In this document: positions 21,831 through 53,444 of the stretch, piece by piece | Layout: every line of letters starts with the position of its first letter | How positions within the stretch are numbered: position 1 is the first letter of the stretch | NCBI GenBank assembly: GCA_030692765.1 | Contig: JAUYUB010000004.1 | Coordinates: 55,391 to 119,390, forward strand | DNA: 64,000 nucleotides | Origin: Sulfuricurvum sp. | GTDB taxonomy: Bacteria > Campylobacterota > Campylobacteria > Campylobacterales > Sulfurimonadaceae | Reading direction: 5' to 3' | Made by a program: the position numbers and the translations under genes | The notes under the pieces: model-generated | Seen by the model: the letters and a program-made list of their open reading frames with translations, nothing else | Database searches by the model: none | Told to the model about the DNA's origin: nothing

Positions 21831-21893
21831 GGGTTTCCTGCCGAGGGAAACCTAGTGTTAACGTAGCTATAGGGATGTATTCCTATAGCGTTT
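21831..21893 (+). repeat. Dispersed structured intergenic element, copy A
   Basis: GGTTTCCT-GCCG-AGGGAAACC hairpin, TAGTGTTAACGTA linker, GCTATAGG-GATGTATT-CCTATAGC hairpin, GTTT. Homologous to 30558-30658, 51361-51424 and 53372-53444. Confidence 0.8.
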
Positions 21894-21920
21894 AAACTTA
21901 AAATAGAAAGGACTATAACG

Positions 21921-22070
21921 ATGGCAGTACCTAAAAGAAGAGTGAGTCACACTCGCGCAGCTAAGCGTAGAACACACTACAAAATTTCACTTGCTCGTCC
22001 TGTAAAAGACAAAGACGGCACGTATAAATTGTCTCACTTTGTTAACCCAACTACCGGTGAGTATAAATAA
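21921..22070 (+). CDS. rpmF: 50S ribosomal protein L32
   Basis: Manual translation [49 protein letters not shown]; below the ORF-track cutoff. Confidence 0.96.
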
Positions 22071-22073
22071 TCG

Positions 22074-23063
22074 ATGATCAAAATTGCTATTGATGCAATG
22101 GGCGGGGACTTTGGTCCCGAACCGATTGTAAAAGGAACACTAGAAGCTTTAAAGGCAAAAGAGTTCGAAGCAATTCTCGTTGGTAAAAAAGATGAGATTT
22201 TAGCTTTGTTACCTAAGGGCTATAAAGGTAAGATTTCGATTGTAGAAGCAAGCGATGTCATCGACATGGGTGATGCCGCTACTGACGCGCTTAAACGCAA
22301 AGAGAGTTCTATTTATGTTGCGATGGAACTCGTACGCAATGGTGAAGCAAACGGTGTTGTCAGCGCTGGACACAGCGGTGCCACCATGAGTCTTGCGACC
22401 TTGCGACTTGGCCGATTGAAACATGTATTACGTCCTGCGCTGGTGACTTTAATGCCTACTAAAAATGGTAAGCGTAGTGTGCTGATGGATGCCGGTGCCA
22501 ATGTTGATTGCAAACCCGAGCACTTGTTCCAATTTGCCATCATGGGTCATTGCTATGCAAAAGACATGTTGAAAATTGAACATCCGCGCGTTGGCCTTCT
22601 TGCAAATGGTGAAGAAGACTCAAAAGGCAATGAAGTCACCAAAGAGACATTTGGATTGCTTCAAGGGAGTAAAGGTTTTATCGGTAATGTCGAAGGGAAT
22701 AATATTTTCGATTCCACTTGTGATGTTATTGTATGCGATGGATTTATTGGAAATTTGGTTCTCAAAGCATCTGAAGGTGTTGCCACAACCATCAGCTACT
22801 TTATCAAACAATTTATACGCAAATCACCTTTTGCCATTACAGGTGCTTTGTTAATGCGCAAAGTCTTTGCTCGATTAAAAAAAGAGATTGATTATGCTGA
22901 AATCGGTGGTGCTCCTTTGGTGGGCATCAAAGGGTGTGCAATCATTGGGCATGGTAAAAGTAACCCAAAAGCTGTTAAGAATGCTATTTTTCAAGCAATC
23001 AATTATGTTAACACGGGCGTTAATGAACACATCGAAGCACGCTTAGAAGCTCTAAACAAATAA
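22074..23063 (+). CDS. plsX: Phosphate acyltransferase
   Basis: [31 protein letters not shown]. Confidence 0.97.
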
Positions 23064-23089
23064 CATTCACTATTCGCAAAAGGCCAATT

Positions 23090-24091
23090 ATGTACGCTGC
23101 GTTTTCCTCTATCGGGGCTTATATCCCCTCTAAAGTTCTCACCAATGCTGATCTTGAAATCATGGTTGATACCACGGATGAGTGGATATTTAAACGCACT
23201 GGAATCAAAGAGCGCCATATTGCAGCTAAAGATGAAACAACCAGCGATATGGGGACGAAAGCTGCCCAAATCGCAATACAGCGTTCCGGCCTAGAAAAAT
23301 CACAAATTGATTTGATTATCTGTGCTACCATTTCCCCCGATTATTTTTGTATGCCTTCCACTGCAACCGTTATTGCGACCAAACTTGGCCTTGAAAAAGT
23401 TACTGCTTTTGACATCTCCGCGGCATGTACCGGTTTTGTGTATGCTCTAAGCATTGCAAAAGCCTTTATTGAATCAGGAATGAAAAAACATGTCCTCATT
23501 ATTGGTGCTGAAAAACTAAGCGCAATAACCGACTATACCGATCGTGGCACCTGTATATTGTTCGGTGATGGTGCAGGTGCTGCCATTATCAGTGCAAGCA
23601 ATGATAAATCTAAAGGGATCGTCGATATCCATACAGGCTCTGATGGTAGTTTTGGGGACTTACTTATGACACCAAACGGCGGAAGTGGTTCCGCCCATGA
23701 TGAATTAGATCGGAAATCTACAAGCTGTTTCATGAAAATGAAAGGCAACGAAACCTTTAAAGTAGCCGTTAGAACACTCACAAATGATGTGATCGAAATT
23801 TTAAAAGACAATAATATTCACTCTTCTGCTATCAAACACTTTGTTCCTCATCAAGCCAATTATCGTATTATAAAAGCGGTAGGAGATGCCCTAGAACTGA
23901 AAGATGAACAAGTCGTATTGACGGTTGAAAAATATGGAAACACTTCTGGAGCATCGATTCCTATGGCTATCAATGATATCTATGAATCGGGTCGATTGCA
24001 AGAGGGAGACATGATGCTTCTGGATGCTTTTGGCGGTGGATTGACGTGGGGAAGTGCTATTGTCCCATTTGCCGGTAAAGCTCACCACTAA
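23090..24091 (+). CDS. fabH: 3-oxoacyl-ACP synthase III
   Basis: [26 protein letters not shown]. Confidence 0.97.
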
Positions 24092-24132
24092 ACAACTCTC
24101 GCTACAATAGCAGATCTTTTAAAAGGTCTACT

Positions 24133-24522
24133 ATGATTTATACCAATCCTCTTATTTACATTGAAATTCACGAGAGTGAAATCCCTTGGCTTAAAATATT
24201 TACCCATAAAAATCGTAAAGAATTCTCAGACTGTTCACACGAAGAACGTATGATGATTTTTGAGGCACTGGATCTCATTGAAAAAGAGATGCTTTCGTAT
24301 TTTAAACCTGACAAAATTAACATAGCCTCTTTTGGAAACATGCTTCCACGAGTCCATTGGCATATTATGGCACGATTTTTAAATGACAGTTATTTTCCAG
24401 AACCGATGTGGGGGGCTAAACAAAGAGAGGGAGAAGTAAAGATGGCTCCAATGGAGCCATTTATTGAGAATTTAAAAGCCGTATTAGCTTCTAGGCTTGT
24501 TTTGTCCACCGAAGCTACGTGA
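24133..24522 (+). CDS. HIT family protein
   Basis: KINIASFGNMLPRVHWHI. Confidence 0.85.
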   Translation: MIYTNPLIYIEIHESEIPWLKIFTHKNRKEFSDCSHEERMMIFEALDLIEKEMLSYFKPDKINIASFGNMLPRVHWHIMARFLNDSYFPEPMWGAKQREGEVKMAPMEPFIENLKAVLASRLVLSTEAT

Positions 24523-26148
24523 ACGATCACCCGCTCCACGATCTGCACCGCCAGCATTACGATCGTTATTACCACGGTATCCACCGCCCGTACTGCCACC
24601 ACGCTCACCCGCGCCTGCATTACGATCGTTATTACCACGGTATCCGCCGCCGCTGCCGCCACGATCCCCACCGCCAGCATTACGATCGTTGTTACCACGA
24701 TATCCGCCACCACCGCTACGATTACCACGGTATCCGCCGCCACGGTTATTACCACCACGGTCATGACTATTTGCAAGGTTATGAAGAATTTTCTCCATAC
24801 GCTCTGCAGAAATACCAATCTGATTTGGCCCTTGAACTGTATTACGCTCCATGAGCAAAGAGATCAATTTATACGCGATCTGCTCTTGATCAAATTCTTC
24901 TTTAAGCGCATCCAATACTTTATGAGCAATATCATTCACATGCTGTTTTTCGATTTCAGCAAGTAAACGGTTGATATGTGATTCCTTAACATCCAATTTA
25001 CTTGGAATGTAAGCATGCTCCATAGTCGTTCCAACTTTGGATTTGATACGCTGAAGCTCTTTGAACTCGATTGGCGTTACCAAAGTAATCGCAACCCCTT
25101 TTTTACCTGCACGTCCCGTACGTCCGATACGGTGTACATAACTTTCAGAGTCAAAAGGAATATGATAGTTAAATACGTGCGTGATGTCATCAATATGCAA
25201 ACCACGTGCTGCTACGTCTGTAGCGATCAATACATCAAATGCATCGGTCTTAACGCCTTTAATAACACTCTCGCGCTGACGCTGCTCCATATCTCCATGA
25301 AGTCCTTTTGCGGAATAACCTGCCGCCGAAAGAACATTTGAAAGACGATCAACCTCTTTTTTCGTACGACAGAAAACAACCGTCTTCTTCGCATCTTCAG
25401 CATCCATCAAACGGATGATTGCATCATCACGCTCTGATTCTTCGATTACATAATACTGTTGTGTAATATCTGTATTCGTAGTCTCTTCTCTCGTGATAGA
25501 AGCGAAGAATGGGTCTACTAGGATGCGCTCTGCAAGCTTTTTGATCGGCATTGGCATTGTTGCTGAAAAGAGCAATGTTTGGCGCTCTGTTGGAAGATAG
25601 CTAAAGATTTCATTGATATCGTCCAAGAATCCCATATCCAACATCTCATCTGCTTCATCCAAAATAACGGTTGATGGGGCAAAGCCTTTGAGCATGTTAC
25701 GGCTAAGCATATCCAATAAACGCCCTGGTGTAGCGATAATAACTTGTGCACCACGCTCAATCATATCTATTTGGCGGTTATATGAACTTCCACCGTAAAT
25801 AGTTACTGTACGAACACCGAGGTGCTTGCCGTATTTGAAAATTTCATCACTTACCTGATTAGCAAGTTCACGCGTTGGAGTTACGATAAGAACTTCGATT
25901 CCGCCTTTTAAGTGCATTTTATTCAATGCCGGCAAACCAAATGCTGCTGTTTTACCTGTACCTGTATGTGCTTGACCTACTACGTCGCGGCCTTGCATAA
26001 TAACCGGGATAACCATTGACTGGATAGGACTCGGAACTGTAAATCCAGCATGTGTAATGCTTTGCATAATCTCGCTACGAAGACCAAAATCTGCAAATGT
26101 TCCCACAACTGCTTCGTTTTCGCTTACTTGTATTTCGTTGTTACTCAT
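24484..26148 (-). CDS. DEAD-box RNA helicase (DeaD/CshA-like) with an RGG-rich tail
   Basis: AHTGTGKT, PTRELA, DEAD, SAT, HRIGRTGR. Confidence 0.96.
   Translation of the reverse strand: MSNNEIQVSENEAVVGTFADFGLRSEIMQSITHAGFTVPSPIQSMVIPVIMQGRDVVGQAHTGTGKTAAFGLPALNKMHLKGGIEVLIVTPTRELANQVSDEIFKYGKHLGVRTVTIYGGSSYNRQIDMIERGAQVIIATPGRLLDMLSRNMLKGFAPSTVILDEADEMLDMGFLDDINEIFSYLPTERQTLLFSATMPMPIKKLAERILVDPFFASITREETTNTDITQQYYVIEESERDDAIIRLMDAEDAKKTVVFCRTKKEVDRLSNVLSAAGYSAKGLHGDMEQRQRESVIKGVKTDAFDVLIATDVAARGLHIDDITHVFNYHIPFDSESYVHRIGRTGRAGKKGVAITLVTPIEFKELQRIKSKVGTTMEHAYIPSKLDVKESHINRLLAEIEKQHVNDIAHKVLDALKEEFDQEQIAYKLISLLMERNTVQGPNQIGISAERMEKILHNLANSHDRGGNNRGGGYRGNRSGGGGYRGNNDRNAGGGDRGGSGGGYRGNNDRNAGAGERGGSTGGGYRGNNDRNAGGADRGAGDRSRSFGGQNKPRS
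24540..24760 (-). repeat. Intragenic repeats encoding GGGYRGNNDRNAG-type units
   Basis: CATTACGATCGTT(A/G)TTACCACG(G/A)TATCC occurs three times, plus partial units, in the helicase 3' end. Confidence 0.9.
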
Positions 26149-26385
26149 AATTTACCTTTAATTAATACGCCACGCCAGCAATAAAAAGAAACTCCGCATT
26201 CCCCTATGGAATGGTTTCTAAAAAGCCCATGTTGCTACGCTGTGCTGCTGTGACGCTGTATCTTAACCCTCTATTGGGCAGAAAATTTTCAGAGATCATG
26301 ATCGTGCGATCTCTACCATGGAAGGTACCTTTGTAAATCATCACACACGTTGATAACTTACGAAGGTACCCAAAAATTTGAGCGA
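26149..26385 (-). promoter_or_regulatory. Long structured 5' leader of the DEAD-box helicase
   Basis: gggTACAAT -10 box near 26390; 20-bp stem at 26324-26370; AGAGATC/GATCTCT stem at 26291-26314. Confidence 0.55.
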
Positions 26386-26533
26386 ATTGTACCCATCTTG
26401 ACCATAATTCTTCCTGATATTACAGCAATACCAAAAGTTAAAGTTAACTTTTAGTTTCTATTCGCTTATGATTTGTACTATTTTTTTAATTTTGAATCAC
26501 TATACTGCCAAAAAACATTAGGGAGAACTCATT

Positions 26534-26737
26534 ATGTTCAATGTACGTATAGAAAGAGAATGCGGTTGTTTTAAACGCAGCGGTATGCCAACGATCAAAG
26601 CATTTGATAACAAAGATGATGCATTAGTAGAAGCAACTGACTGGGCAGACGAGATGAATGAAACATTTTGCCGCAAACACCGTTTTGTTGTTGTTGAAGA
26701 GGGAAATGACCTACTTATTACAATGGCAATGAACTAA
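26534..26737 (+). CDS. Small hypothetical protein (67 aa) with ECGC and FCRKH motifs
   Basis: SD GGGAG before ATG; plausible composition; potential Cys/His ligands. Confidence 0.8.
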   Translation: MFNVRIERECGCFKRSGMPTIKAFDNKDDALVEATDWADEMNETFCRKHRFVVVEEGNDLLITMAMN

Positions 26738-26753
26738 TATTTAAAGGCTATCG

Positions 26754-27677
26754 TCACTTTCGGTGACGATCCAGCCACACCATGAGTCCTTTTTGACCAT
26801 GCAGACGGTTTTCTGCTTCTTGAAAAATCACACTTTGATCCCCTTCTAGCACCGATTCACTCACTTCAACTTCACGATACGCCGGTAAACAATGTAAAAA
26901 TATTGCGTACGTATCCGCTAAAGCCATCAGCGTATCATCAACAATATACCCTTTAAAATCAGCGATACGCTGTGCTTTTTCTTCTTCTTGACCCATTGAA
27001 ATCCACGTATCGGTTGTAACTACCGTAGCCCCCGCAACCGCAATTTTTGGATCATTCGTAAACGATATTTTTGCACCGCTGTGTTTTGCAAACTCCAGTG
27101 CGTCTGCCACAATCACAGGATCACATTCGTATCCTACTGGTGTGGCTACGCGTAATTCAAACCCAAGTTTTGCCGCTAACATCAACCATGAATGGGTCAT
27201 ATTGTTACCATCGCCCACATAGGCAACAATAGGCTCAACATGGCGTCCGCACTCAACCATCGTCATATAATCGGCAATAAGCTGTACGGGATGATAACTG
27301 TCGCTAAGGCCATTAATCACAGGAACAGAGGAATATTTAGAGAACTCTTCAAGTTTTGAGTGTTCATAGGTTCGGATCATCACCATATCCGTCATCGAAG
27401 AGATAACGCGTGCGGTATCTTTGACCGGTTCGCCACGCCCTAAATGAATATCACGGTTGGATAAGAATAAAGCATGACCGCCCAATTGAAACATCCCCGC
27501 TTCAAAACTCACACGCGTTCGTGTTGAGCTTTTTTCAAATATCATAGCAAGTGTTTGTCCCGCTAAGTAGGGATGAGGCTTTTTTGCCTTTTGCTCTTGT
27601 TTAATCACTAATGCCAAATTTACGATCTCTAAGATCTCTTCTTTAGTATAGTCCCTCAACGTCAAAAAATGTCTCAC
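26754..27677 (-). CDS. argF: Ornithine carbamoyltransferase
   Basis: [23 protein letters not shown]. Confidence 0.97.
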
Positions 27678-27724
27678 GAAAAATCCTCATTTTCAAAAAA
27701 CAATCATATCATAAAATTATTTCA

Positions 27725-28690
27725 TTACGATAATAGTTGCGCAACCTCTTTGGCGTGATAACTGATAATAATGTCGGCACCTGCTCGTTTGAAGCCAATC
27801 ATCGTTTCCATCATAACACGATTATAATCGATCAAACCTGCCTTTCCTGCGTGTTTTAACATCGCGTATTCGCCGCTGACGTTGTACACTGCAAGAGGAA
27901 GATTGGAAGCTTCGCGAATATCCCGAATAATGTCAAGATACGCCAATGCAGGTTTTACCATCAATATATCTGCGCCCTGAGCTTCATCCAAAAGACTTTC
28001 ACGTATTGCTTCACGACGGTTGGCAGGATCCATCTGATACGTAGAGCGATCACCGAAGCTAGGTACCGATTCAGCTACGTCACGAAACGGACCATAATAC
28101 CCGCTGGCAAATTTCGTCGAGTAACTCATAATGGGAAGATTGACGTATCCCCCTGAATCCAACGCATCGCGCAATGTTGTAATAATCCCGTCCATCATCC
28201 CCGATGGAGCAATCATATCGACACCGGCTCGTGCATGTACGAGTGCCTGCTGCCCTGAAATACCTAATGTCAAATCATTATCAACTGTCTCATGTACATG
28301 ATCGATAATCCCGCAATGCCCGTGATCCGTATATTCGCAAAAACATAGATCCGTGACGACAAACATTTTCGGGTACGCACGCTTAACAGCTCGAACTGCG
28401 GTCGCGATGATTCCATGATCACACAAGGCATCCGATCCCACAGAATCTTTCACCGCAGGGATACCAAAAAGAAGAATCGAATGAATCCCCAGTGCTTGAA
28501 GTACTTCGCACTCTTTAAGTATCTCATCCAAACTCATCTGATAGACACCCGGCATTGAAGCTACTTCTGTTTTAATCCCCTCACCCGGTTTTACAAAAAG
28601 TGGATAAATAAAGTCATCAGCACGAACGTGTGTTTCACGTACCAGTGATCTAAGATGAGGGTTCATGCGTGTGCGACGTAAACGATCCAT
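27725..28690 (-). CDS. hemB: Porphobilinogen synthase
   Basis: [14 protein letters not shown] zinc site, MVKPAL, YNVSGEY; start MDRLRR after GGAG. Confidence 0.97.
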
Positions 28691-28781
28691 AATGAGGCTC
28701 CGATGCAAAATAAAGGGAAAATTGTACCTTCACTACGATTAATAAACCATTTTTTCAGAAACGACCATTATAATGACACCT

Positions 28782-29372
28782 ATGAAAACACCGATAAATT
28801 TTGAAAAATCCGACATTGCCAACCTACCCACAAAACATGGGCATTTTAAAGTTCGTGCGTATAAAGAGGGGACTCAAGAACATCTCGCCATCTTTACCGA
28901 AAACTTTGAGAAGAATGAAGCTCCGCTGGTACGTATCCATTCTCAATGCCTTACCGGTGACACCTTTGGCAGTATCAAATGTGATTGTAACAATCAGCTG
29001 CACAAAGCACTCGACCTGATTTCCAAAGAGGGTGGATTGATCATCTATCATGCGCAAGAAGGACGAAATATCGGTTTGCTCAATAAGCTCAATGCATATG
29101 CACTCCAAGATCAAGGACGCAATACAATTGAAGCTAATCTTGAGCTAGGGTTTCAACCCGATCAACGAACCTATGATGTTGTTAATGAAGTTTTTAAAGA
29201 CTTTGGACTGACAAAAATTCGGTTACTCACCAATAATCCTGCTAAAGTTTTGGTTGTTAAAGGATTGAATGTTGAAATCATTGAACGTATTCCCATCATC
29301 ATTGACTCCAATCCCTATAATGAAGCGTATTTAAAAACTAAAAAAGATCATATGGGGCACTACCTTGACTAA
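28782..29372 (+). CDS. ribA: GTP cyclohydrolase II
   Basis: RIHSQCLTGD, CDC, QEGRNIGL, LLTNNP. Confidence 0.95.
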   Translation: MKTPINFEKSDIANLPTKHGHFKVRAYKEGTQEHLAIFTENFEKNEAPLVRIHSQCLTGDTFGSIKCDCNNQLHKALDLISKEGGLIIYHAQEGRNIGLLNKLNAYALQDQGRNTIEANLELGFQPDQRTYDVVNEVFKDFGLTKIRLLTNNPAKVLVVKGLNVEIIERIPIIIDSNPYNEAYLKTKKDHMGHYLD

Positions 29373-29943
29373 TTTACATCGCTTAATGAAAGAACAAAAT
29401 ATTACCGTTGATCCTCAATTTTATGACTATGCCCAACAATACAAAGAATTATTGGAAAAATGGAATAAAGTCCATAATCTCACCGGCGCTAAGACGCCCG
29501 CACAAATTGATAGCTTTATCGTTGATGCCATCGCCCCTATTACTTTTTTGCCTTCAATCAAAACCGCAATGGATATTGGAACAGGTGCAGGATTTCCGGG
29601 AATGATATTGGCTATGGGGATGCCAAATACGCACTTTACTCTCGTAGAGCCACTTGCCAAACGGGCCAGTTTTTTACAGTTCGTCAAAGCCGATTTGGGA
29701 CTTGTGAATGTAGAAGTAAAAGCAGTACGTGTGGAACAATTACTACCGCAATCTTATGATTTAATCACTTCTCGTGCCGTTACCGATACCAAAATGCTGA
29801 TGCAACTCTCCCAGCCATTTCGCCAAGCAGGGAGCCTTTTACTTTTCTACAAAGGTGAAAAAGTGTACGATGAAGTAAGCGAACTCTCAAACTATAAAAT
29901 CATTGAAATGGTCAACCGCCATTATCTTCTAATCGAGTCATAA
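29365..29943 (+). CDS. rsmG: 16S rRNA m7G527 methyltransferase
   Basis: WNKVHNLTG, DIGTGAGFPG, ITSRAV. Confidence 0.95.
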   Translation: MTNLHRLMKEQNITVDPQFYDYAQQYKELLEKWNKVHNLTGAKTPAQIDSFIVDAIAPITFLPSIKTAMDIGTGAGFPGMILAMGMPNTHFTLVEPLAKRASFLQFVKADLGLVNVEVKAVRVEQLLPQSYDLITSRAVTDTKMLMQLSQPFRQAGSLLLFYKGEKVYDEVSELSNYKIIEMVNRHYLLIES

Positions 29944-29945
29944 GC

Positions 29946-30158
29946 ATGTTATTTAAACTTTTACTATTGGGCGGTTTTATCGCTATTGTTTATTACGTTT
30001 TCTTCAATAAAAAAAGTCTTCCTACCCCCAATAAAGATAACCACAAACCTGAAGAACCGATGATAGCATGTGCAAAATGCGGAACATACGCGGACATCAA
30101 AGAGACCTTTATCCGCGATGGATACTATTACTGTTCACGCGAATGCATGGAGGCATAA
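29946..30158 (+). CDS. PP0621-like small membrane-anchored zinc-binding protein
   Basis: N-terminal TM, CAKC...YYCSREC. Confidence 0.8.
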   Translation: MLFKLLLLGGFIAIVYYVFFNKKSLPTPNKDNHKPEEPMIACAKCGTYADIKETFIRDGYYYCSRECMEA

Positions 30159-30159
30159 C

Positions 30160-30552
30160 ATGATACTTTTCGGCCATCCCCTGATTTCCTCAGAGCGTTT
30201 TTATCACATAGAATCAATCGAAGCGATTGAAAAAACCCCTTCCAACTCCATTATCGCTCTTTTTTTCGCACCGCAGAATCTTGATCTTATCAGCTATCTA
30301 CAAACCAATAAAATACGTTTCGCCTTGTACGTCGCCTCAATCACCGAAGCGGTATTGGCAGAGAATATGAATGCCAGCTATTTATTGGTCCATCCAAAAG
30401 TGGGTCAGGAAATTCAAAAAGTAGCCGAGCATTACATGTTTGATGCCAAAGTGTTGGGTTATATCGAGCAGGAAGATCAGCTTGAAAAACTCATAGAGAT
30501 GCGCCTAGACGGTGCTATTTTTATCGAAGCGATTGTAAAAATCACGTCGTAA
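30160..30552 (+). CDS. Conserved hypothetical protein
   Basis: MILFGHPLI start after GGAGG; continues the ribA-rsmG operon. Confidence 0.75.
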   Translation: MILFGHPLISSERFYHIESIEAIEKTPSNSIIALFFAPQNLDLISYLQTNKIRFALYVASITEAVLAENMNASYLLVHPKVGQEIQKVAEHYMFDAKVLGYIEQEDQLEKLIEMRLDGAIFIEAIVKITS

Positions 30553-30557
30553 TTTTA

Positions 30558-30658
30558 TACGCTATCGGAACAAGCCCCGATTAACTACGTTAACACTAGG
30601 TTTTAGCCGCAAGGGGCACAATACCCTCAGCGGGAAGCTCAAATCGCGTTGCGATTTA
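30558..30658 (-). repeat. Dispersed structured intergenic element, copy B (long form)
   Basis: CTACGTTAACACTAGG at 30585-30600 is the exact reverse complement of 21851-21866; covarying ATCGG/CCGAT stem. Confidence 0.8.
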
Positions 30659-30660
30659 TA

Positions 30661-31677
30661 CTAATCTATCCACTCTCGCTTCAAATCCTTATCCAAGCAC
30701 GCCAAGATTTCATATCCTATCGTCCCAACCGCTTTTGCATACTCATTGGCATCATTAAAAATCAACAGCTCATCCGTATCGGTTGAAAATGCGGCACTGT
30801 CCATGGAAATACGACCGCGCAAAGCAATCCCATCAGGAGTCACGTATCGATTTGATGCCAAACGATCTAAGCCATTAGCATACCCCAAATCATAGGTCGA
30901 TACGACCTCATCACATGGTGCTTCATAAATACCGTTATACCCTACTCTTTGCCCTGCCTTGAGGGTACGTGTGACGATTTTATTGCCTACCAAAGAAAGT
31001 ACCGGTTTTAATGCAGGCTGCGGAAGCGTAGCATCCATCTGCAAACATCCATACAGTGCTATCCCGATACGAACCATCTCATCTTCACACTGCAATGAGC
31101 GAAAAGTACCTGCTGAGTTGGAGATATGAAAACGGATGCTCCATCCCTCTTTTTTCGCTAATTTCACTGCTTTTTCTTTCAGGCCATCAAATACCTTGCG
31201 CTGCCAAAACCACTCTGAGCTAAGTGTATCCGCACTCTTAAAATGGCTCATAATACCGACACACTCAAGCCCCTGCTGTGACATGTGCTTGAACGCTTTT
31301 TCCAAATCATCGATCGCAATCCCGTGACGGTGCATTCCCGTATCGATTTTGAGTTCAACACACGTCCCTTTTGGAAACTTCTCAATGGATTCAAGGGTAT
31401 TGATGACATAGCGAAAACTACTATTTCTCTCACTCGGAAAATCAGCCAAAATCAAAACAGTTTCAAAATATTGTGCAATTTCAAGTGCTTCGGATTCTAA
31501 GCGAACCACCGCTTGGGTAATCCCATATTGGGATACTGCTTGAGCAATTAAAACAGCCCCATGAGCATACGCATTGTCTTTTAAGACCACAGCTATTTTA
31601 TCTTTTGCACCAACTTGCTGTGCGATAATGTCAAGATTAGAATAAAGCGCCTCACGGCTTAATTTTATAGTTCCCAT
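30661..31677 (-). CDS. alr: Alanine racemase
   Basis: VLKDNAYAHG (PLP Lys), KIDTGMHRHG, GYANG, GRISMD. Confidence 0.93.
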   Translation of the reverse strand: MGTIKLSREALYSNLDIIAQQVGAKDKIAVVLKDNAYAHGAVLIAQAVSQYGITQAVVRLESEALEIAQYFETVLILADFPSERNSSFRYVINTLESIEKFPKGTCVELKIDTGMHRHGIAIDDLEKAFKHMSQQGLECVGIMSHFKSADTLSSEWFWQRKVFDGLKEKAVKLAKKEGWSIRFHISNSAGTFRSLQCEDEMVRIGIALYGCLQMDATLPQPALKPVLSLVGNKIVTRTLKAGQRVGYNGIYEAPCDEVVSTYDLGYANGLDRLASNRYVTPDGIALRGRISMDSAAFSTDTDELLIFNDANEYAKAVGTIGYEILACLDKDLKREWID

Positions 31678-44746: not shown

Positions 44747-44749
44747 ATG

Positions 44750-45211
44750 CTACTCTGTTAACTTTTTACAGCCAGCATTTGTATGTGTACAATCAAAAGT
44801 TCCATTAGCCTGCGTGTAGGTAAATGTAACATCGGTATTCAAAACTTTATACTTATAAGTACACACATTCGGAGCAGCACCTGTACAATTACCAGAATGC
44901 CAATGGCCATTTTTGTCTTCAGATATTATCCCGTATTGCAATAGTTTATGTGTCGCATCAACACCATCAAACAGCACGCCACTGGTCAATCCGTGCAAAG
45001 CTGAGACATACGTACTCTCACCTTTTAGCAAACGCGTCTGCCGCTCACTCACAATAGCCGATCGGATCGCTGCAACGTCGCTACGTCCTTTGGCGATTTG
45101 CGCATCATCCCGTGTTGCTGCGAAACGCGGAATCGCAACTGCTGCTAAAATCCCTAAAATAACAATAACAAAGACCAATTCTATCATTGTAAAAGCAGTT
45201 CGTTTCATCAT
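44750..45211 (-). CDS. Type II/IV prepilin-like protein
   Basis: KRTA|FTMIELVFVIVILGILAAVAIP class III signal; Cys pairs. Confidence 0.92.
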   Translation of the reverse strand: MMKRTAFTMIELVFVIVILGILAAVAIPRFAATRDDAQIAKGRSDVAAIRSAIVSERQTRLLKGESTYVSALHGLTSGVLFDGVDATHKLLQYGIISEDKNGHWHSGNCTGAAPNVCTYKYKVLNTDVTFTYTQANGTFDCTHTNAGCKKLTE

Positions 45212-45306
45212 CTAATCCTATTGCGCTGAGTTCTATGATTACCTCGTAATCCCAAAAATCAATTCAATCTATAAAATCATACCACCGGAAGGTGATATAA
45301 TAGAAC

Positions 45307-45789
45307 TTATTGAACGACGCTTGTTCCGCCAAATGTAGCATTCTTATCTGCATTATTAGCGCCAAGAATGTTTGCTTTGACAGCAGCAGCTTGGACAGCT
45401 TTGCATTGTGTACTCGTTCCAGCACCTGCAGATACAATCATCGTTCCATCAGCAACTGCAACTGTTTGCGGCTTGAATATAATACAGACATTAGTACCAT
45501 CTGTAAGATTCAATGTTGCCCCAGCAACTGCTGTTGTTGTGGCAGTAGGAGCTGCTGATGTTCCAAATCCAACATTAGTCACATCCGCTAATGTAGCCGT
45601 ACCAAATGTCCCTTTAGATGTATAGTAAGATCCCAAATCTGAGACAAACGTTGCCATATCAGAAGCACTTTTTGCAATTTTTGCATCATCACGTGTTGCT
45701 GCAAGTTTAGGAATGGCAACTGCTGCCAAAATACCAAGAATAACGATAACGAAGATCAACTCGATCATAGTAAAACCAGAACGTTTCAT
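45307..45789 (-). CDS. Type II/IV prepilin (probable major subunit)
   Basis: KRSG|FTMIELIFVIVILGILAAVAIP, Ala/Thr-rich body, Cys pair, strong SD AAGGAG. Confidence 0.92.
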   Translation of the reverse strand: MKRSGFTMIELIFVIVILGILAAVAIPKLAATRDDAKIAKSASDMATFVSDLGSYYTSKGTFGTATLADVTNVGFGTSAAPTATTTAVAGATLNLTDGTNVCIIFKPQTVAVADGTMIVSAGAGTSTQCKAVQAAAVKANILGANNADKNATFGGTSVVQ

Positions 45790-46042
45790 GGCTTACTCCT
45801 TATATGTAGAAAAAGTAGTTACACTCGTAACTCTGCCAACATTATGTTCCTATTAATCTTAAATAACCATTAAGAACTTTAACTATCTCTCTTTAGAGTA
45901 AAAGTACAAATAATCTGCTGCTGGATTAATAATTCACTACTTTAATTCTCGTTTATATTTTAAAGGCGTATAATTCGCGCCATATTGTCACTACAACCTT
46001 TTACAGGTGCAGTGTATTGAGACATAAAGGGACAGCAATACC

Positions 46043-47626
46043 ATGATATCCGCAGAGATTGAAACGCTAGGGATTAAAAACGCTCAAGAGATTTTCCATA
46101 ATCTGAGCTTTGATGAGTTGATCGAACATGAGTTGCGAAACGGCGAGTGCGCCCTAACCACCAGTGGTGCTACAACCGTTGATACGGGTATTTTCACGGG
46201 TCGAAGTCCTAAAGATAAATATTTTGTCAATGAAGACCCTTCCAACAAATACATCGCATGGGGTGACGTTAACAAACCCATCGATAAAGGCATCTTTGAT
46301 GAATTACTAGAAGTAGCCCGCCAGCAGCTCTCCAATAAATCCCTTTATATCACCGATGTTTACTGCGGTGCAAGTGATGAAAGTAAACGATCTGTCCGTT
46401 TTGTCTCTGAGATCGCTTGGCAATCTCATTTTGTTAAAAATATGTTTATACGTCCCACCAGCAATGAGCTCACTACCTTCAAACCTCAATTCACCGTTCT
46501 TAATGCGTGTAAAGCAAGCAACGATAAGTGGAAAAATCATGGTCTGAATTCAGAAGTCTTTGTCCTCTTTAATATAGAAGAGAATTTATGTATCATCGGT
46601 GGTACGTGGTACGGCGGAGAAATGAAAAAAGGGATTTTCTCCATGATGAACTACTGGCTTCCTCTCGAGGGGAAACTGGCAATGCACTGTTCTGCCAATG
46701 TTGGGCCAGCAGGCGATACGTGTTTGTTCTTTGGTCTTAGCGGTACAGGAAAAACAACCCTTTCTACGGATCCTGAGCGTGCACTTATCGGTGATGATGA
46801 ACACGGTTGGGATGATAAGGGTGTCTTTAACTTTGAGGGCGGATGTTATGCGAAAGTAATCAATCTTGATCCTTCAAGCGAGCCTGAAATCCATGCTGCT
46901 ATTCGTAAAAATGCATTATTAGAGAACGTTGTATATGATGAAGATGGTTTAGTTAACTACAATGACGGCTCAAAAACAGAAAACACCCGTGTTTCTTACC
47001 CGATCGAGCATATTGAGAATCACCAATCATCTCTCCAAGCCGATCATCCAAAAAACATTATATTCCTCTCTGCTGATGCATTCGGGGTTCTTCCTCCGGT
47101 GAGTAAGCTCTCAAAAGAACAGGCAATGTACTATTTCCTCAGCGGCTATACGGCAAAAGTTGCGGGAACAGAGCGTGGTATTACCGAGCCTGTCGCAACA
47201 TTCAGTTCATGTTTTGGTGAAGCATTCTTGCCATTACACCCGACGGTCTATGCAAAACTCTTGGGTGAAAAAATTGATAAGCATAACGTGAATGTCTATT
47301 TGGTGAACACAGGATGGACAGGAGGTGCTTATGGTGTCGGAAAACGTATGAGTATCAAAGATACCCGTTCATGCATCCGTGCTATCTTGGATGGTTCGAT
47401 CAATGAAAGTGAATTCCAGACTACCAACACCTTTAGATTCAACATTCCCTTAACACTCAAAGGAGTTGACTCAAATATTCTTAACCCTCGTAATGCATGG
47501 GCTGATAAAGAAGCGTATCTTGTAGAACGTGACTATTTAGCGGGAATGTTTATCAAAAATTTTGAAAAATACAATGGACAAGACGGATTTGATTTCTCTG
47601 CTGCAGGTCCGAGAGTAATTGACTAA
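46043..47626 (+). CDS. pckA: Phosphoenolpyruvate carboxykinase (ATP)
   Basis: [35 protein letters not shown]. Confidence 0.97.
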
Positions 47627-47638
47627 ATAACTGTTTGT

Positions 47639-47724
47639 GGTGAGCCTGTCGAACCCATAGATACCCTTTGACAAAACAAGGGTACCGCTCGCGAAGCGAT
47701 GTTTCCTCGAGCTCAGGGCGAACG
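47639..47724. repeat. REP-like composite palindromic element
   Basis: GGTGAGCCTGTCGAACC, TACCCTTTG-ACAAAA-CAAGGGTA, CGCTCGCGAAGCG and CCTCGAGCTCAGGGCGAACG between convergent genes. Confidence 0.6.
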
Positions 47725-47734
47725 TAAAATTATA

Positions 47735-48166
47735 TTACCAAGGAACTTCATCCGTTGCTACGTAGTTTTTCCCCGTACCGTCAAGGACATCTGAACACTC
47801 TTGCTGTGCCTCATCCGTTTTAAAGCTTCCGCAATCAATCTTATAAACCACTTTTCCCGTTACATGATCTAATGACATTGTGGCGTGAACTTGTCCGTCT
47901 TCCTTGTATTCATAGCTTTGGTTATTATCTGAAAGCTTCCACCCTTTTTTCTCCATCTCTGCCACTTTGCTTAATTCAATAACCTCGCTACCCTCTGATT
48001 TTAACTTCGTTGCCGATTTTGCCGCTTTGTGCGCACCACTGATGGTTGTTGCAATAACCGAATCAACCTGCGCAAGACGATATTGTAAATAAGCGATGTA
48101 GCCTAAGCCGGCTGCTACTAATAATGCGATTGCCAAACTGGCACGTGTGTAACCATAACGTTGCAT
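47735..48166 (-). CDS. Hypothetical protein, degenerate type IV pilin-like
   Basis: MQRYG|YTRASLAIALLVAAGLGYIAYLQY is in register with pilin alpha1-N; AQVxxxxxxxxSGA; C-terminal Cys pair. Confidence 0.6.
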   Translation of the reverse strand: MQRYGYTRASLAIALLVAAGLGYIAYLQYRLAQVDSVIATTISGAHKAAKSATKLKSEGSEVIELSKVAEMEKKGWKLSDNNQSYEYKEDGQVHATMSLDHVTGKVVYKIDCGSFKTDEAQQECSDVLDGTGKNYVATDEVPW

Positions 48167-48256
48167 ATGAACTTCCTTAGATTAAGTAATAGTAATTATT
48201 ATGCCTAAGATTTCTTAAAAATAGTGGACAATTGTCATAAAAAAGTAAGATTTAAA

Positions 48257-48274
48257 TTCCCGCAAGGGCGGGAA
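48257..48274 (-). terminator. glnA intrinsic terminator
   Basis: TTCCCGC-AAGG-GCGGGAA hairpin 16 nt after the glnA stop, followed by an AT-rich run on the minus strand. Confidence 0.7.
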
Positions 48275-48290
48275 GTAAAGAAGTGTTAGA

Positions 48291-49721
48291 TTAGCAAGAG
48301 TAAGTAGAAATAAACTCAAATGCTGTTGGACGTGCTTCGTCAGGCCAAACTTGTGTTTCAAATTTGTAGTGCTGATACGTATCGATAAATAATTGACTCA
48401 TTACTGGTTTCAAGAACTCGTTATCGCGGATAAGTGATTCCAATGAACCACGTAGCGTGTGTGGCATTTGTGGAATACCTTTTTCACGGATCTCATCGAG
48501 GCTGAGTTCAAACAAATCTTCATCCATTGGTCCAATCGGAACCGTTTTGTTTTTGATACCGTCAAGTCCTGCTAGCAACATAGCCGTAAACGCAAGGTAT
48601 GGGCATGAAGTTGAATCTGGGAAACGCATCTCAATACGTGTTGCTTTTTCACCAGCACCATATGGTACGCGGCAAGATGCTGAACGGTTTTGGCTTGAAT
48701 ACGTCAAAATTGATGGCGCTTCAAATCCTGGGATAAGACGCTTGTATGAATTGGTTGACGGATTTGTAAATGCTGCGATAGCGCGTGCGTGTGCAAAAAC
48801 ACCACCCACGTAGTGAAGCGCTGTTTCAGACAAGTTGCTGTAACCACCCTCTTTGTAGAATGTATTTTTACCGTCTTTCCAGATCGACTGGTGAACGTGC
48901 ATACCGCTACCGTTGTCACCGTAAAGTGGTTTTGGCATAAAGGTTACTGTCTTGCCATTGAGGTGAGCTACCATTTTGATAACGTATTTAAGTTTTTGTA
49001 CGTTGTCTGCTGCGTTTACAAGCGTATCAAATACGATACCGATTTCGCCTTGACCCTGTGCTACTTCGTGGTGACCCAAGATAACTTCAAGACCAACTTG
49101 CTCTAGTACCAACATCATCTCTGCACGTAAATCAACCATAGTATCGATTGGAGCTACTGGGAAGTAACCGCCTTTATTACGTGGGCGGTGACCTGTGTTG
49201 TAACCGTCTGGGAATGATTTTGAATCGTTCCATGAACCCTCTTCAGTATCTACTTCATAATATGAACAGTTTACTTCATCACGGATTTTGACATCATCAA
49301 ATACGAAAAATTCATTTTCAGGACCGAAATACGCAACATCGCCCACACCTGCATTCGCAAGGTGCTCTAACGCTTTTTTAGCGATAGAACGTGGACATTT
49401 CTCGTACAATTCACCTTTATAGATGTCAAAAACATCACAGAAAACGATAATGGTCGGATCAGCCGTAAACGGGTCCATAAATGCAGATTGCGCATCCGGT
49501 TTCAATAACATGTCTGATTTGTTAATCGGCTGCCATGCGTCGATAGAAGAACCGTCAAATGGCAAACCACCTTCAAATTGACCTGCATTAACTGCACTGT
49601 AACGGTAGGTAACATGATGCCATGTCCCTTTCATATCTGTGAATCGAAAATCTACGAACTGAACATCGTTCTCTTTACAAAAACTAAAAAACTCGTCGAC
49701 GCTGTTTACAAACTTACCCAT
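48291..49721 (-). CDS. glnA: Glutamine synthetase type I
   Basis: FDGSSI, GPENEFF, HHEVA, FMPKP...[16 protein letters not shown]. Confidence 0.98.
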
Positions 49722-49797
49722 ACGGATCTCCTGATACTGTAATTATATAGTTCAAAAAGTATAGCGAATTTAACGTTAAATCCATGAAAGTTAGTGC

Positions 49798-50577
49798 CTA
49801 AAATTTAATCATTGTCCGTTCTTTGTTTCGGTATAACGCACATTCGTTATATCCGAATTTCCGTGCGAGTGCTTCTATCTCATCACTAAACATTCCTACC
49901 TGATCACTTCTATGGGCATCCGAGCCAAAAGTAATCGGTATATCAAAACTGGCGATCTCTTCAAGCAGTCCATCGGAGGGGTAGGCCTCTTTGACAGGTT
50001 TTCGCAAGCCTGACATGTTGATTTCAATCGTCATATCCGCTTTTTTGATCGCTTTGAGGGCATCTTGAGCCAAAAGACGAATATCCGTTTTTGGAAAAAA
50101 ATTAAACACTTTTAGCAGATCAAAATGACCGACGATGTTAAATTTTCCCAATTTTGCCATCTCTTCTACAAGTGAAAAATAACGGATATAGATCTCATCC
50201 ATATTAATATCGTTATAGTATCCTATGAATTCAGGATTATCAAACCCCCATTCATCAATAAAGTGGACCGAACCGATCAAATAATCACATGGACGTTTTA
50301 AAACGCGCTCATCAAGATGGCCAGGAAGATAATCGACTTCATAACCCAATAAAACGGTGATCTGATCACGATAGCGCTCTTTTGCTTGGTGTACCCAGCT
50401 CTCATACTGCTGCATCTCTTCGAATTTCATTCGATATTCAGGGTCAAATGTCATTGGAGCATGATCGGAAAAACCAAAATACTGTGTACCGCATGCAATT
50501 GCAGCTTCCACGTACTCATTAACGCTTCCTGTTGCGTGATTACACAGTATGGTGTGATTGTGAAGGTCAACTTGCAT
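49798..50577 (-). CDS. PHP-family histidinol-phosphatase (HisJ/HisK type)
   Basis: DLHNHT..CNHA, SDHAP, GSVH, GHFD, GSDAH. Confidence 0.9.
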   Translation of the reverse strand: MQVDLHNHTILCNHATGSVNEYVEAAIACGTQYFGFSDHAPMTFDPEYRMKFEEMQQYESWVHQAKERYRDQITVLLGYEVDYLPGHLDERVLKRPCDYLIGSVHFIDEWGFDNPEFIGYYNDINMDEIYIRYFSLVEEMAKLGKFNIVGHFDLLKVFNFFPKTDIRLLAQDALKAIKKADMTIEINMSGLRKPVKEAYPSDGLLEEIASFDIPITFGSDAHRSDQVGMFSDEIEALARKFGYNECALYRNKERTMIKF

Positions 50578-50650
50578 GTAATTTCCTATTGAAAATAATC
50601 ATATTCATGATATTATAGTGCAATATTTCGCAACCTGAGGTACTAAGATT

Positions 50651-51349
50651 ATGACTCAAGAAGAACTTGATGCACTGATGAATGAAGATATTGACATGGA
50701 CATGGAAGAGATGGCTGATGAAGCAGCAGCCGATACCATTGAAGAACACAGCGAAGAGCTATTTAACAGTATAGACGATCCTGATGGATACCGTGCTTCT
50801 GCCGTTCACAGTTGGCCCCCTCCACCTCCTACTGATGATAATAAAATGGTTCATCAACTCGATGATGTCACCAAAGAAAGCGAAGAAAAAGCGACAGAAA
50901 TTTTTGACCTTATTGAAGGAATCAGTAATGATCTGACAGATTCCCAAGACTCTGTTGAAGAAATCAATAGTGTTTTAGATGCCAATATTGCTCTTTTTGA
51001 AACATTGTGTACTAAATTTCCACATGTAGAAGCATTTCAAACGCAATTGGCACAAAACAAAGAAGCAAAAGACAAAAATGCTTCGTTAAAAGATATGATG
51101 GAAAGTAATATTGACACCGTCATGAACATTATGGACATCATGCAATATCAGGATATTCATCGTCAAAAAATTGAACGTGTCATCAATGTAATGCGTGCTC
51201 TATCTACGTATATGAATCACCTGTTCTCAAGTAAAGTCGATGACTCTAAACGTGTCACCTCTGCAGTTCACCTTCCAGGCGATACCACTGCGGATATTGT
51301 CAGCAGTGATGATATTGAAGCTTTGCTCGCTTCATTTGGCCAAAAATAG
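50651..51349 (+). CDS. cheZ: CheZ-like chemotaxis phosphatase (HP0170/Cj0700 type)
   Basis: LDDVTKESE...A helix, MQYQDIHRQKIERV (D-x3-Q), C-terminal DIEALLASFG; next to the U32 peptidase as in Helicobacter/Campylobacter. Confidence 0.8.
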   Translation: MTQEELDALMNEDIDMDMEEMADEAAADTIEEHSEELFNSIDDPDGYRASAVHSWPPPPPTDDNKMVHQLDDVTKESEEKATEIFDLIEGISNDLTDSQDSVEEINSVLDANIALFETLCTKFPHVEAFQTQLAQNKEAKDKNASLKDMMESNIDTVMNIMDIMQYQDIHRQKIERVINVMRALSTYMNHLFSSKVDDSKRVTSAVHLPGDTTADIVSSDDIEALLASFGQK

Positions 51350-51360
51350 TATATTTTTTG

Positions 51361-51424
51361 AAACGCCATTGGAACCCGTCCCAATTGGCTACGTTAACAC
51401 GTGGGGTTCCTTCGGCAGGAAGCC
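51361..51424 (-). repeat. Dispersed structured intergenic element, copy C
   Basis: AAACGCCATTGG-AACCCGTC-CCAATTGGCTACGTTAACAC...TTCCTTCGGCAGGAAGCC aligns with the reverse complement of copy A. Confidence 0.8.
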
Positions 51425-51527
51425 AAAATGCACTTGCATGCTTTTTATATAACCTTTAAATTTCATCTAACAAACACTTTTTTTCGCTAAAATTTCCTTA
51501 AAATTACATACGAATCGAGAATAGGCT

Positions 51528-52820
51528 TTGAAAAAAGTGGAACTCCTCTCCCCTGCGGGAAATTTAGAAAAACTCAAAATTGCTATCGATTACGGTGCAG
51601 ATGCCGTTTATGGCGGAGTAAGCCACTTTTCTTTGCGTATTCGATCGGGTAAAGAATTTGATCTGGAAAGCTTTAAAGAAGGGATAGACTACGCACATGA
51701 GCGCGGCCGAAAAGTGTACGTCACCATCAACGGTTTTCCGTTTAACTCTCAACTCAAACTCCTCAAAGAGCACATCGCTACGATGGCGTCACTGAACCCT
51801 GATGCGTTTATCGTTGCAACTCCCGGAGTTCTCAAACTCGCACATCAAATCGCTCCCCATATTCCCCTTCACCTCTCGACTCAAGCCAACGTCATGAACG
51901 TTCTAGACGCTCAAGTGTATTACGACATGGGGGCGCGCCGTATTATCGCGGCGCGCGAAATCTCTCTTAAAGATTTGACCATCATCAAAGAAGAACTCCC
52001 TGATTTGGAGCTCGAAGTATTTATCCACGGTTCAATGTGTTTCGCCTACAGCGGCCGATGTTTGATCTCGACACTCCAAAGCGGCCGTGTTCCTAATCGC
52101 GGAAGCTGTGCTAACGATTGCCGATTTCCCTATGAAATATTTGCGTCCAATCCTGAGACAGGAACCCTGTTCAAGCTCGTTGAAGAAGAAGGTCTAGGAA
52201 CGTATATCATGAATTCCAAAGACCTCAATCTGGCCAGCCATATGAAAGAAATTTTGGAAAGCGGCTGTATCGATTCGGTCAAAATTGAGGGACGCACCAA
52301 GTCTCCTTATTATGCCGCCATTACCGCAAAAACCTACCGCCGTGCCATCGATGATTTTTATGCGGGAAAATTTGACGGCGATGCGTATCAGCGCGAGCTC
52401 AATACAACGCAAAATCGCGGATTTACCGATGCCTACCTCATCAATCGCCCTTTTGAAAAGCATGATGGGCAAAACCTCGATTTTACCATGATGATGGGAA
52501 CCCATCAAGTTGCGGCGATCGTGGATGAAAGTTGTGAGTTTTTTGAATGCAAATACAAAACTTTTCCAGGTGATGTGATGGAGCTTGTCGTTCCGGAAGG
52601 TTCTGTATTAAATGCAATCGATAACGACATCGGAAGTGTTTTTTGCGATGAAGGACAATGGAATATCCGATTTAAACAGCTTATTGCCGAAAATGGAAAA
52701 ATTTGGGATCAAGTCCACAGCGGTAATCTAAACCGGTTTAAACTTCCGTGCATACTGCCTGCCTATACTTTTTTCCGTATCCCTGCCACTGAGGATATGG
52801 GGACGATTACTAAATCTTAA
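51528..52820 (+). CDS. U32 family peptidase (TrhP/PrtC-like tRNA hydroxylase)
   Basis: ELLSPAG, GADAVY, HGSMCFAYSGRC...C..DCR Fe-S motif, KIEGR. Confidence 0.93.
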   Translation: MKKVELLSPAGNLEKLKIAIDYGADAVYGGVSHFSLRIRSGKEFDLESFKEGIDYAHERGRKVYVTINGFPFNSQLKLLKEHIATMASLNPDAFIVATPGVLKLAHQIAPHIPLHLSTQANVMNVLDAQVYYDMGARRIIAAREISLKDLTIIKEELPDLELEVFIHGSMCFAYSGRCLISTLQSGRVPNRGSCANDCRFPYEIFASNPETGTLFKLVEEEGLGTYIMNSKDLNLASHMKEILESGCIDSVKIEGRTKSPYYAAITAKTYRRAIDDFYAGKFDGDAYQRELNTTQNRGFTDAYLINRPFEKHDGQNLDFTMMMGTHQVAAIVDESCEFFECKYKTFPGDVMELVVPEGSVLNAIDNDIGSVFCDEGQWNIRFKQLIAENGKIWDQVHSGNLNRFKLPCILPAYTFFRIPATEDMGTITKS

Positions 52821-52843
52821 ATTTAATCCAAGGGAACAAAAAT

Positions 52844-53338
52844 ATGAAATTCGTATCCATCATCATGGGAAGCAAAAGTGACTATGAGATTATGAAAATA
52901 TGTGCCAATATGCTTGAAGAGTTTGGAGTCCAGTATGAGCTCATCATCTCATCAGCCTACCGAAGCCCGGAACGCACCAGAGAGTATATTCTAAACGCGG
53001 AAGCCAAAGGAGCTCAAGTCTTTATCGCTGCGGCCGGCATGGCGGCTCATCTGGCAGGTGCCCTGGCTGCAAAAACGGTCAAACCGGTCATCGGTGTCCC
53101 GATGAAGGGAGGAGTGATGGATGGAATGGATGCGATGCTCAGTACCGTTCAAATGCCATCTGGAATGCCTGTTGCAACCGTTTCTCTTGGACATGCCGGA
53201 GCCGTTAATGCTGCGTATCTTGCCATGCAGATTTTAGCATTGGACAATGAAGAGCTACGGATGAAACTCCTCGAAGATCGAATTGCAAAAGCGAAAAAAA
53301 TAGAAATGGATTCAATGGAAGTTGAAACTATTTTATAA
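52844..53338 (+). CDS. purE: N5-CAIR mutase
   Basis: IIMGSKSD, AGMAAHLAG, PVIGVP, VQMPSGMPVAT. Note SAYRSPE where SAHR is usual. Confidence 0.95.
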   Translation: MKFVSIIMGSKSDYEIMKICANMLEEFGVQYELIISSAYRSPERTREYILNAEAKGAQVFIAAAGMAAHLAGALAAKTVKPVIGVPMKGGVMDGMDAMLSTVQMPSGMPVATVSLGHAGAVNAAYLAMQILALDNEELRMKLLEDRIAKAKKIEMDSMEVETIL

Positions 53339-53339
53339 G

Positions 53340-53356
53340 TAGGTACGCATTTTGCT
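53340..53356 (+). promoter_or_regulatory. Predicted sigma54 (-24/-12) promoter
   Basis: TAGG-TACGCATTTT-GCT gives GG-N10-GC in the gap after purE. Confidence 0.55.
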
Positions 53357-53371
53357 TTTAATAAATTATGT

Positions 53372-53444
53372 ATTTGCCCATTAGGGTAAGCTTTAGTGCC
53401 TTAGCGGCAAGCGTAGATAAAGGTATTTCATTCCTTTGTCGTTC
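53372..53444 (+). repeat. Dispersed structured intergenic element, copy D (divergent long form)
   Basis: GCGTA-GATAAAGG-TATTTCATT-CCTTTGTC-GTT has the same layout as copy A; AGGGTA...GTGCC..GCGGC is shared with copy B. Confidence 0.6.

Follow-up and report, generated by a model that had tools for sequence, protein, structure and literature searches.

A 64,000-nucleotide stretch of a Sulfuricurvum sp. genome (hereafter the window; positions 55391-119390 of contig C28 in a 2.15-Mb, 28-contig assembly) contains four short intergenic sequences, copies A to D, that belong to an uncatalogued family of small, non-coding, structured interspersed elements. We regard them as probable members of a new family of structured, non-autonomous, mobile elements that would operate with a partner factor. 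The element is a discrete unit of 65-80 nt, running from about WUCUG to CGUUYAAA. It is mobile: at single intergenic sites, closely related genomes differ by its gain or loss. What stays constant in it is the fold of one strand together with an unpaired 28-nt core, not its termini.

Fold of the element and its copies in the window

The long form of the element was found by a structural scan of the genome, and a covariance model (R1) was built from six long copies. The long-form consensus reads WUCUG-P1-AGCUUYAGUGCC-NNAGY-GGC-NARCGUAG-P3-CGUUYAAA, in which P1 and P3 are helices and P2 is a hairpin of 3-4 bp inside a near-invariant 28-nt junction. When 104 long copies were aligned to the model, 96.5% of cells held standard pairs, compared to 36-52% in slid controls. 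Both sides of a pair had changed in 299 cells, compared to 61 in shuffles, and such changes affected five of the six pairs in P1 and eight of the ten in P3. Twenty copies of a short form gave a similar picture (87.8% paired versus 28-49% in slid controls). These comparisons support the proposal of an earlier note, made from the letters of the window alone, that covariation among the copies reflects selection on structure.

The junction strands are almost invariant, and about 50 positions are conserved overall. P2 is likewise invariant within the genus, and it covaries in other genera (GCC/GGC, GACC/GGUC, CGCC/GGCG, and AGUC/GACU). The last base of the P2 loop (Y) pairs with the R of NARCG, as CG in 149 copies, UA in 5, and UG in 3, with CA in none. 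Together with an adjacent invariant G-C, this Y-R pair closes a small H-type pseudoknot of 2 bp. Short forms keep the Y-R pair around a GUUA loop (UA in 12, CG in 7, other in 1). In P3, the four top pairs hold to GGGR/YUCC, one of them being a conserved G-U pair (alignment columns 100/134), while the lower pairs vary freely. Mutual information analysis revealed no further tertiary pairs beyond P1, P3, and the Y-R pair.

The nonstandard pairs enabled assignment of the folding strand. G-U and U-G pairs (129) far outnumbered A-C and C-A pairs (18), and did so even when the conserved G-U was excluded (55 versus 18), indicating that one specific strand folds. Folding energy was lower on the top strand for 40 of 48 sense copies and for 38 of 43 antisense copies. 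As the top strand is favoured in both orientations, the fold belongs to the element's own strand, whatever the direction of host transcription.

All four copies were present where the earlier note had placed them, and each was recovered by R1. Its layout was also right: a hairpin, a linker ending in CGTAG, a second hairpin closed by GG...CC, and then GTTT, GTAT, or GTTC, with the compensatory stems it listed confirmed in the four copies. It had described copy D as more diverged; instead, D is the canonical long form. Copy D (53370-53448, + strand; 82.2 bits) lies in sense orientation in the purE-DUF3972 spacer. Its helix P1 (53374-53389, + strand) pairs UUGCCC with GGGUAA and leads into the near-invariant 28-nt core (53389-53416, + strand; AGCUUUAGUGCCUUAGCGGCAAGCGUAG), as defined by column conservation. 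Within this core, P2 joins 53398-53400 to 53406-53408, and the pseudoknot pairs are G53404-C53412 and C53405-G53411. Helix P3 (53416-53440, + strand) pairs GAUAAAGG with CCUUUGUC, its top (GGUA...AUUCC) deviating from the family consensus GGGR/YUCC.

Copy A (21831-21897, + strand; 45.1 bits) is a short form in sense orientation in the yceD-rpmF spacer, starting 10 nt 3' of the yceD stop codon. Its P1 pairs 21829-21839 with 21845-21855, followed by a mini-hairpin of G21855-C21862 and U21856-A21861 around the GUUA loop. P3 pairs 21866-21875 with 21880-21889, and the tail is CGUUUAAAC. Copy C (51357-51425, - strand; 28.1 bits) is also a short form, lying antisense between two + strand genes, an open reading frame of 232 aa with no assigned function and a peptidase U32 gene. 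Copy B (30553-30640, - strand; 22.6 bits, E 0.29) is a hybrid located between a convergent pair, an open reading frame of unknown function (+) and alr (-). Its 5' half is that of a long form (CCC-GCUGA-GGG, then GCC-CCUUGC-GGC), joined to the short-form linker AAACCUAGUGUUAACGUAG and a P3 of GUUAAUCGG/CCGAUAGC. Short forms such as A and C lack the GCC/GGC hairpin altogether.

The four copies differ in how well they stand out individually. The window contains three exact occurrences of GTGTTAACGTAG; allowing two mismatches or fewer gave eight matches versus 3.05 expected, a number reached by none of 100 shuffles. In single-sequence folding, A (z = -4.85) and D (z = -2.95) were clearly better than shuffled sequences, whereas C (z = -1.34) and B (z = +0.29) were not clearly so. 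With B and C weak as single folds, the case for structure rests on the comparison between copies. Similar ribosome-binding contexts are found 3' of copies A and D (21890-21923 and 53441-53473; AUAGAAAGGAC...AACGAUG) and are native to the genes. Indeed, the rpmF ribosome-binding region is also present in genomes with an empty site, so it is not part of the element.

Genome-wide, the element amounts to about 22 copies (12 long, 7 short, and 3 of a variant termed G-type). R1 matched 19, to which one short copy on contig C7 and the G-type copies were added. G-type copies (C1:165577-165670, - strand; about C6:35810-35900, + strand; about C19:10210-10300, - strand) are laid out as P1, AGCUUUAGGGGA, a longer P2 (UUGCAAAGGAC/GUCCUUGCC), and P3, overlapping with the main family only in the AGCUUYAG linker and the P3 loop. 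The expectation that the window's copies would have many counterparts elsewhere was therefore borne out in that more copies exist, but its extrapolation from window density was wrong. Contig C28 alone holds seven copies, such that the density of the window (four in 64 kb) lies above the genome average and cannot be extended to the genome.

Insertion polymorphism and taxonomic range

Comparison with orthologous empty sites, a check put forward in the earlier note, revealed that each of the four sites examined was empty in some close relatives. At the yceD-rpmF site occupied by copy A, about 13 of 30 genus genomes were filled and about 16 were empty, the latter including the close relatives G023 and G011. 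Sites C and D were both empty in the closest relative, G019 (90% identical). Site C was also empty in G023 and filled in G020, and in G021 (L233) it contained a tandem triplication, each unit comprising a short form and the last bases of the upstream gene with its stop codon. Site D was additionally empty in G011, G008, and others. In G023, the site D spacer contained a short form elsewhere within it and in the opposite orientation, and G019 retains a 14-nt remnant of that copy.

In this genome the amt spacer contains an antisense copy (C28:34687), and when empty it measures 17-20 nt (14 genomes). It was occupied by long(+) copies in six genomes, short(+) copies in two, and long(-) copies in two. 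These different forms and orientations require at least three independent invasions. Landing places are short AT-rich gene spacers, entered in either orientation, and the tandem arrays that sometimes form are arranged head-to-tail with periods of 71-111 nt. In orthologous copies, stems change by compensation and the core is kept, while the remaining spacer diverges.

Other small hairpin repeats were also observed in these spacers, namely at site C in G019 and G023 (L220, L221) and in amt spacers (L285, L286, L299). They read TTCCCGAT...ATCGGGAA and GCGTGGCTAGCCACGC/GTGTGGCACGCCACAC. The presence of several element families in the same few spacers suggests that these are repeated landing sites.

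R1 was applied to genomes of the genus, the family, and the rest of the order. Of 24 genus genomes sampled, 23 had 5-61 copies each, for an overall range of 0 to 61. Within Sulfurimonadaceae, 105 genomes out of 151 carried the element, representing 17 genera out of 23, whereas in the order's other families only one of 16 genera sampled gave matches. When GTDB species genomes were searched with an exact pattern, more than 119 contigs matched, almost all of them bearing the label Sulfurimonas, Sulfuricurvum, or Sulfurimonadaceae. The element is thus essentially confined to Sulfurimonadaceae (Sulfuricurvum, Sulfurimonas, and relatives). A phage origin was rejected, with the core on only one viral contig, as was a single 'master' locus, since the low-copy genomes examined had no obvious conserved site.

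Rfam 15 gave no matches in the window at gathering thresholds, and at E <= 5 only one unrelated chance match was obtained among five loci with long-form copies. Full-text literature searches returned no description of the element. The earlier note was therefore correct in calling the family unannotated, and its copies extend through the rest of the genome and the taxonomic family.

Orientation, candidate partners, and competing explanations

We considered the orientation of the element relative to its host genes. Among 140 non-redundant long copies, with gene orientation taken from long open frames and not from a gene finder, 49 were sense and 48 antisense between co-directional genes, 19 lay between convergent genes, and 10 between divergent genes. 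The antisense class shows reverse-complement start and stop signals. The flanking genes are functionally unrelated (rpmF, alr, peptidase U32, DUF3972, amt, tlyA-like, and others). Given the even orientation and unrelated neighbours, a riboswitch or cis-regulatory leader was rejected. The earlier note had also offered a non-coding RNA family, an option which in its plain cis-regulatory form is contradicted by an orientation that is random relative to host genes.

A small RNA gene with its own promoter was rejected as well. No position-specific -10 signal was detected in 157 copies, although a few copies have TGnTATAAT-like boxes. Moreover, -10-like words were equally common 5' of sense and antisense copies, without antisense enrichment, and bare copies have no U tract after P3, carrying CGUUYAAA instead. 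A small protein, whose open reading frame in copy C would use the TAG of CGTAG as its stop codon, was rejected because A and C read their common hairpin in different frames. CsrA-type GGA decoys and Shine-Dalgarno mimicry by P3 were also discarded, as GGA or Shine-Dalgarno-like sequence is missing from many P3 loops and stems.

Enzymes that might mobilise the element were sought in this genome and in 31 genomes of the genus. This genome encodes two Y1 proteins, and both genes are flanked by other repeats. One is a 183-aa protein (C15:98431-98980, outside the window; L049) resembling the tyrosine transposases (RAYT) associated with repetitive extragenic palindromes (REP). It lies between inverted copies of its own hairpin (TTCCCACTC...GAGTGGGAA) and looks like a classic REPtron unrelated to the element. 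The other is a 259-aa Y1-transposase-like protein with a C-terminal extension (C21:101448-101780, - strand; L048), surrounded by three copies of AAAAAAGTGTCAGGCACTCTTTT and two of GGGGTCTGACCC, with a HicB-like, antitoxin-like open reading frame downstream.

Across the genus, PF01797 (Y1 transposase) was found in 13 of the 31 genomes. It was absent from 18, including G004 (50 copies) and G006 (55 copies), and present in the copy-free G003. PF07282 (TnpB) was present in 2 of 31 genomes and PF00078 (reverse transcriptase) in 11, both unrelated to copy number, and this genome contains neither a reverse transcriptase nor TnpB. As these gene distributions do not fit copy number, links to RAYT/REP, IS200/IS605, TnpB omega-RNA, and retro-elements were rejected. 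The RAYT or IS200/IS605 partner that the earlier note suggested seeking thus fails on both counts, with other repeats flanking the Y1 genes and PF01797 missing from high-copy genomes.

In the explanation we favour, the fold and invariant core would serve as a recognition surface for a trans-acting factor conserved in Sulfurimonadaceae. The top strand of the element, either as RNA or as single-stranded DNA, would be this factor's substrate, and the factor would account for spread or maintenance. An inserted copy would be co-transcribed with its host operon, so that A and D would be part of sense transcripts and C would lie antisense, and none of the copies in the window would act as a gene-specific regulator. 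A conserved fold and core, combined with no usual mobilising enzyme tracking the copies, points to a candidate partner, which may be a protein or else catalysis by the element.

Several observations weigh against a mobile element with a partner factor. No mobilising enzyme was identified among the Y1, TnpB, and reverse transcriptase profiles in the 31 genus genomes. The flanks of the approximately 22 genome copies have only AT-richness in common, without terminal inverted repeats (TIRs), and no target duplication was present in any fixed register. A-rich flanking direct repeats of at least 7 nt were in weak excess (19 of 138, versus 5.4% in shuffled pairs), an excess which may be inflated by common local base composition. 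The balance of sense and antisense copies depends on genes taken from open frames. Furthermore, the invariance of the core across genera, like the compensatory change among orthologous yceD-rpmF copies, is what one would sooner expect from a functional RNA at host level than from selfish DNA.

Relatives of the core in other genera add to these points. One subfamily has a conserved 3' extension consisting of a further hairpin, P4 (GAAGGGUUUCCUUC), then AUUUUAUGAAAUAAAAUUAAGGA, 5-9 nt, and ATG, and it features an AU-rich run and UAAGGA between P4 and the start codon. All 13 of its loci (L051, L064, L073, L075, L112, L117, L130, L144, L163, L260, L266, L268, and L276) are in sense orientation directly 5' of start codons, preceding unrelated housekeeping genes (tkt, fabG, rpmF, ilvD, tpx, and others). 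The strict sense placement next to start codons suggests that some members, at least, have an RNA role, and the P4 subfamily resembles a portable leader that supplies a ribosome-binding site.

The strongest competing explanation, which we consider possible though doubtful, is that the core is primarily a functional RNA within transcripts (a protein- or ligand-binding pseudoknot, a processing signal, or a self-cleaving ribozyme) and that dispersal is secondary. This would account for the sense-oriented P4 cassettes and for the compensatory evolution of orthologous rpmF-leader copies amid a diverging spacer. It would also suit the roughly 50 conserved positions, which include an unpaired 28-nt junction between freely covarying stems, as well as a pseudoknot pair that is perfectly Watson-Crick or wobble and the predominance of G-U over A-C. 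Likewise, the same core occurs bare, within elements bounded by TIR-like hairpins, and fused to the P4 extension. However, of the copies flanked by co-directional genes, half are antisense, and these fold at least as well as the sense copies. There is no fixed-distance promoter, bare copies lack a U-tract terminator, the flanking genes share no common function, and a single genus spans copy numbers from 0 to 61.

More tentatively still, the core might represent a new class of small functional RNA that was captured repeatedly by different vehicles, for example a ribozyme that cleaves itself or a specific docking site for an RNA-binding protein or nuclease peculiar to this lineage. For a ribozyme, it is the architecture of variable stems around invariant junction strands that would be suggestive. 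Were the core such a module, it would punctuate operon transcripts across Sulfurimonadaceae in portable form, its vehicles being the bare copies, the elements with TIR-like hairpins, and the leader cassette with a ribosome-binding site.

We think it unlikely that the copies are remnants or passengers of miniature inverted-repeat transposable elements (MITEs) moved by a DDE transposase, in which the three-hairpin core would be cargo and the ends decayed or trimmed. At least one Sulfurimonadaceae genome other than this one has the core between TIR-like hairpins, TAGA(C/G)TTCTTGCAAAACT (L100, L126), which speaks for a MITE origin. The weak excess of A-rich direct repeats and a possible duplication at the amt site (CTATAAA/TTATAGA) fit as well. 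On the other hand, the flanks of the approximately 22 copies share nothing beyond AT-richness, and several copies, such as A with its start 10 nt from the yceD stop codon, leave no room for inverted repeats. Bare copies have also inserted independently in both orientations in one spacer, and the copies show no duplication in any fixed register. The MITE-like label in the earlier note is therefore apt with regard to insertion polymorphism, but not with regard to termini, as terminal inverted repeats are lacking and target duplications were not established.

Least probable is a REP-like sequence or gene-less IS200/IS605 derivative (a palindrome-associated transposable element, PATE) moved as single-stranded DNA by a Y1 HUH transposase reading GTAG plus hairpin: CGUAG directly 5' of P3 (as in GTAG-tagged REPs; PMC3733652), hairpins near both ends without terminal inverted repeats or clear target duplication, a strand-specific fold, and two Y1 proteins in the genome speak for it, but the Y1 genes have different repeats at their flanks, PF01797 is absent in 18 of 31 genomes and TnpB found in 2, GC-skew orientation bias is absent (10 copies on the G-rich strand and 12 on the C-rich strand, a small sample of 22 genome copies), arrays are head-to-tail and not inverted doublets, and the last G of GUAG is paired.

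Comparison with known repeats and significance

The element is closest in kind to REP, ERIC, BOX, and MITE-type repeats. It departs from them in its strand-specific fold of three helices and a pseudoknot, its constant 28-nt core, and its lack of a known mobilising partner. ERIC/IRU, Correia (NEMIS), and pneumococcal BOX sequences are structured repeats of intergenic regions, transcribed together with adjacent genes and built as long imperfect palindromes or with terminal inverted repeats. Our element resembles them in being small, non-coding, inserted into spacers both ways, and subject to compensatory pairing, and its modular variants (long, short, G-type, and extended) are reminiscent of boxA-B-C. 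Unlike them, its ends are not inverted repeats, its most conserved part is unpaired, and its fold is specific to one strand.

GTAG-tagged REP and REPIN sequences (Di Nocera et al. 2013, PMC3733652) share with the element a short intergenic stem-loop after GTAG and compensatory stem changes. Their GTAG tag is described as unpaired (PMC3733652). In the element, CGUAG stands directly 5' of P3 in 87 of 104 long copies (U84), and its last G pairs with C145. REP/REPIN-RAYT systems are also similar in that copy number varies widely among related genomes and copies occur in clusters and in both orientations. The element differs in having only 5-60 copies per genome, three helices and a pseudoknot pair, and a conserved 28-nt junction, with neither inverted doublets nor an association with RAYT.

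PATEs derived from IS200/IS605 likewise have a single active strand and hairpins close to each end, and they too show neither inverted termini nor an obvious target duplication. The element is set apart by the lack of TnpA/TnpB in most hosts and the absence of a replication-strand bias, and no conserved target word adjoins its 5' end. In shape only, it recalls the preQ1-I aptamer, an H-type pseudoknot in which a compact hairpin has a loop that pairs downstream and near-invariant unpaired nucleotides. It differs from that aptamer in having no Rfam match, no consistent downstream gene or orientation, and a multi-copy, mobile distribution.

The usual definition of a small interspersed repeat rests on its ends, the part that a transposase reads. 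Here the ends are nondescript, and it is a strand-specific fold with an unpaired core that is selected across at least 17 genera. The hosts are ecologically important sulfur-oxidising bacteria, for which the element offers a well-defined substrate of about 80 nt. The family explains many of the 'conserved leaders' and hairpins in these genomes and should be masked or annotated prior to searches for regulators. It also marks gene spacers that have been invaded repeatedly. At two loci from other genera (L263 and L267), copies directly adjoin an oppositely oriented tRNA gene at the gene's 3' end.

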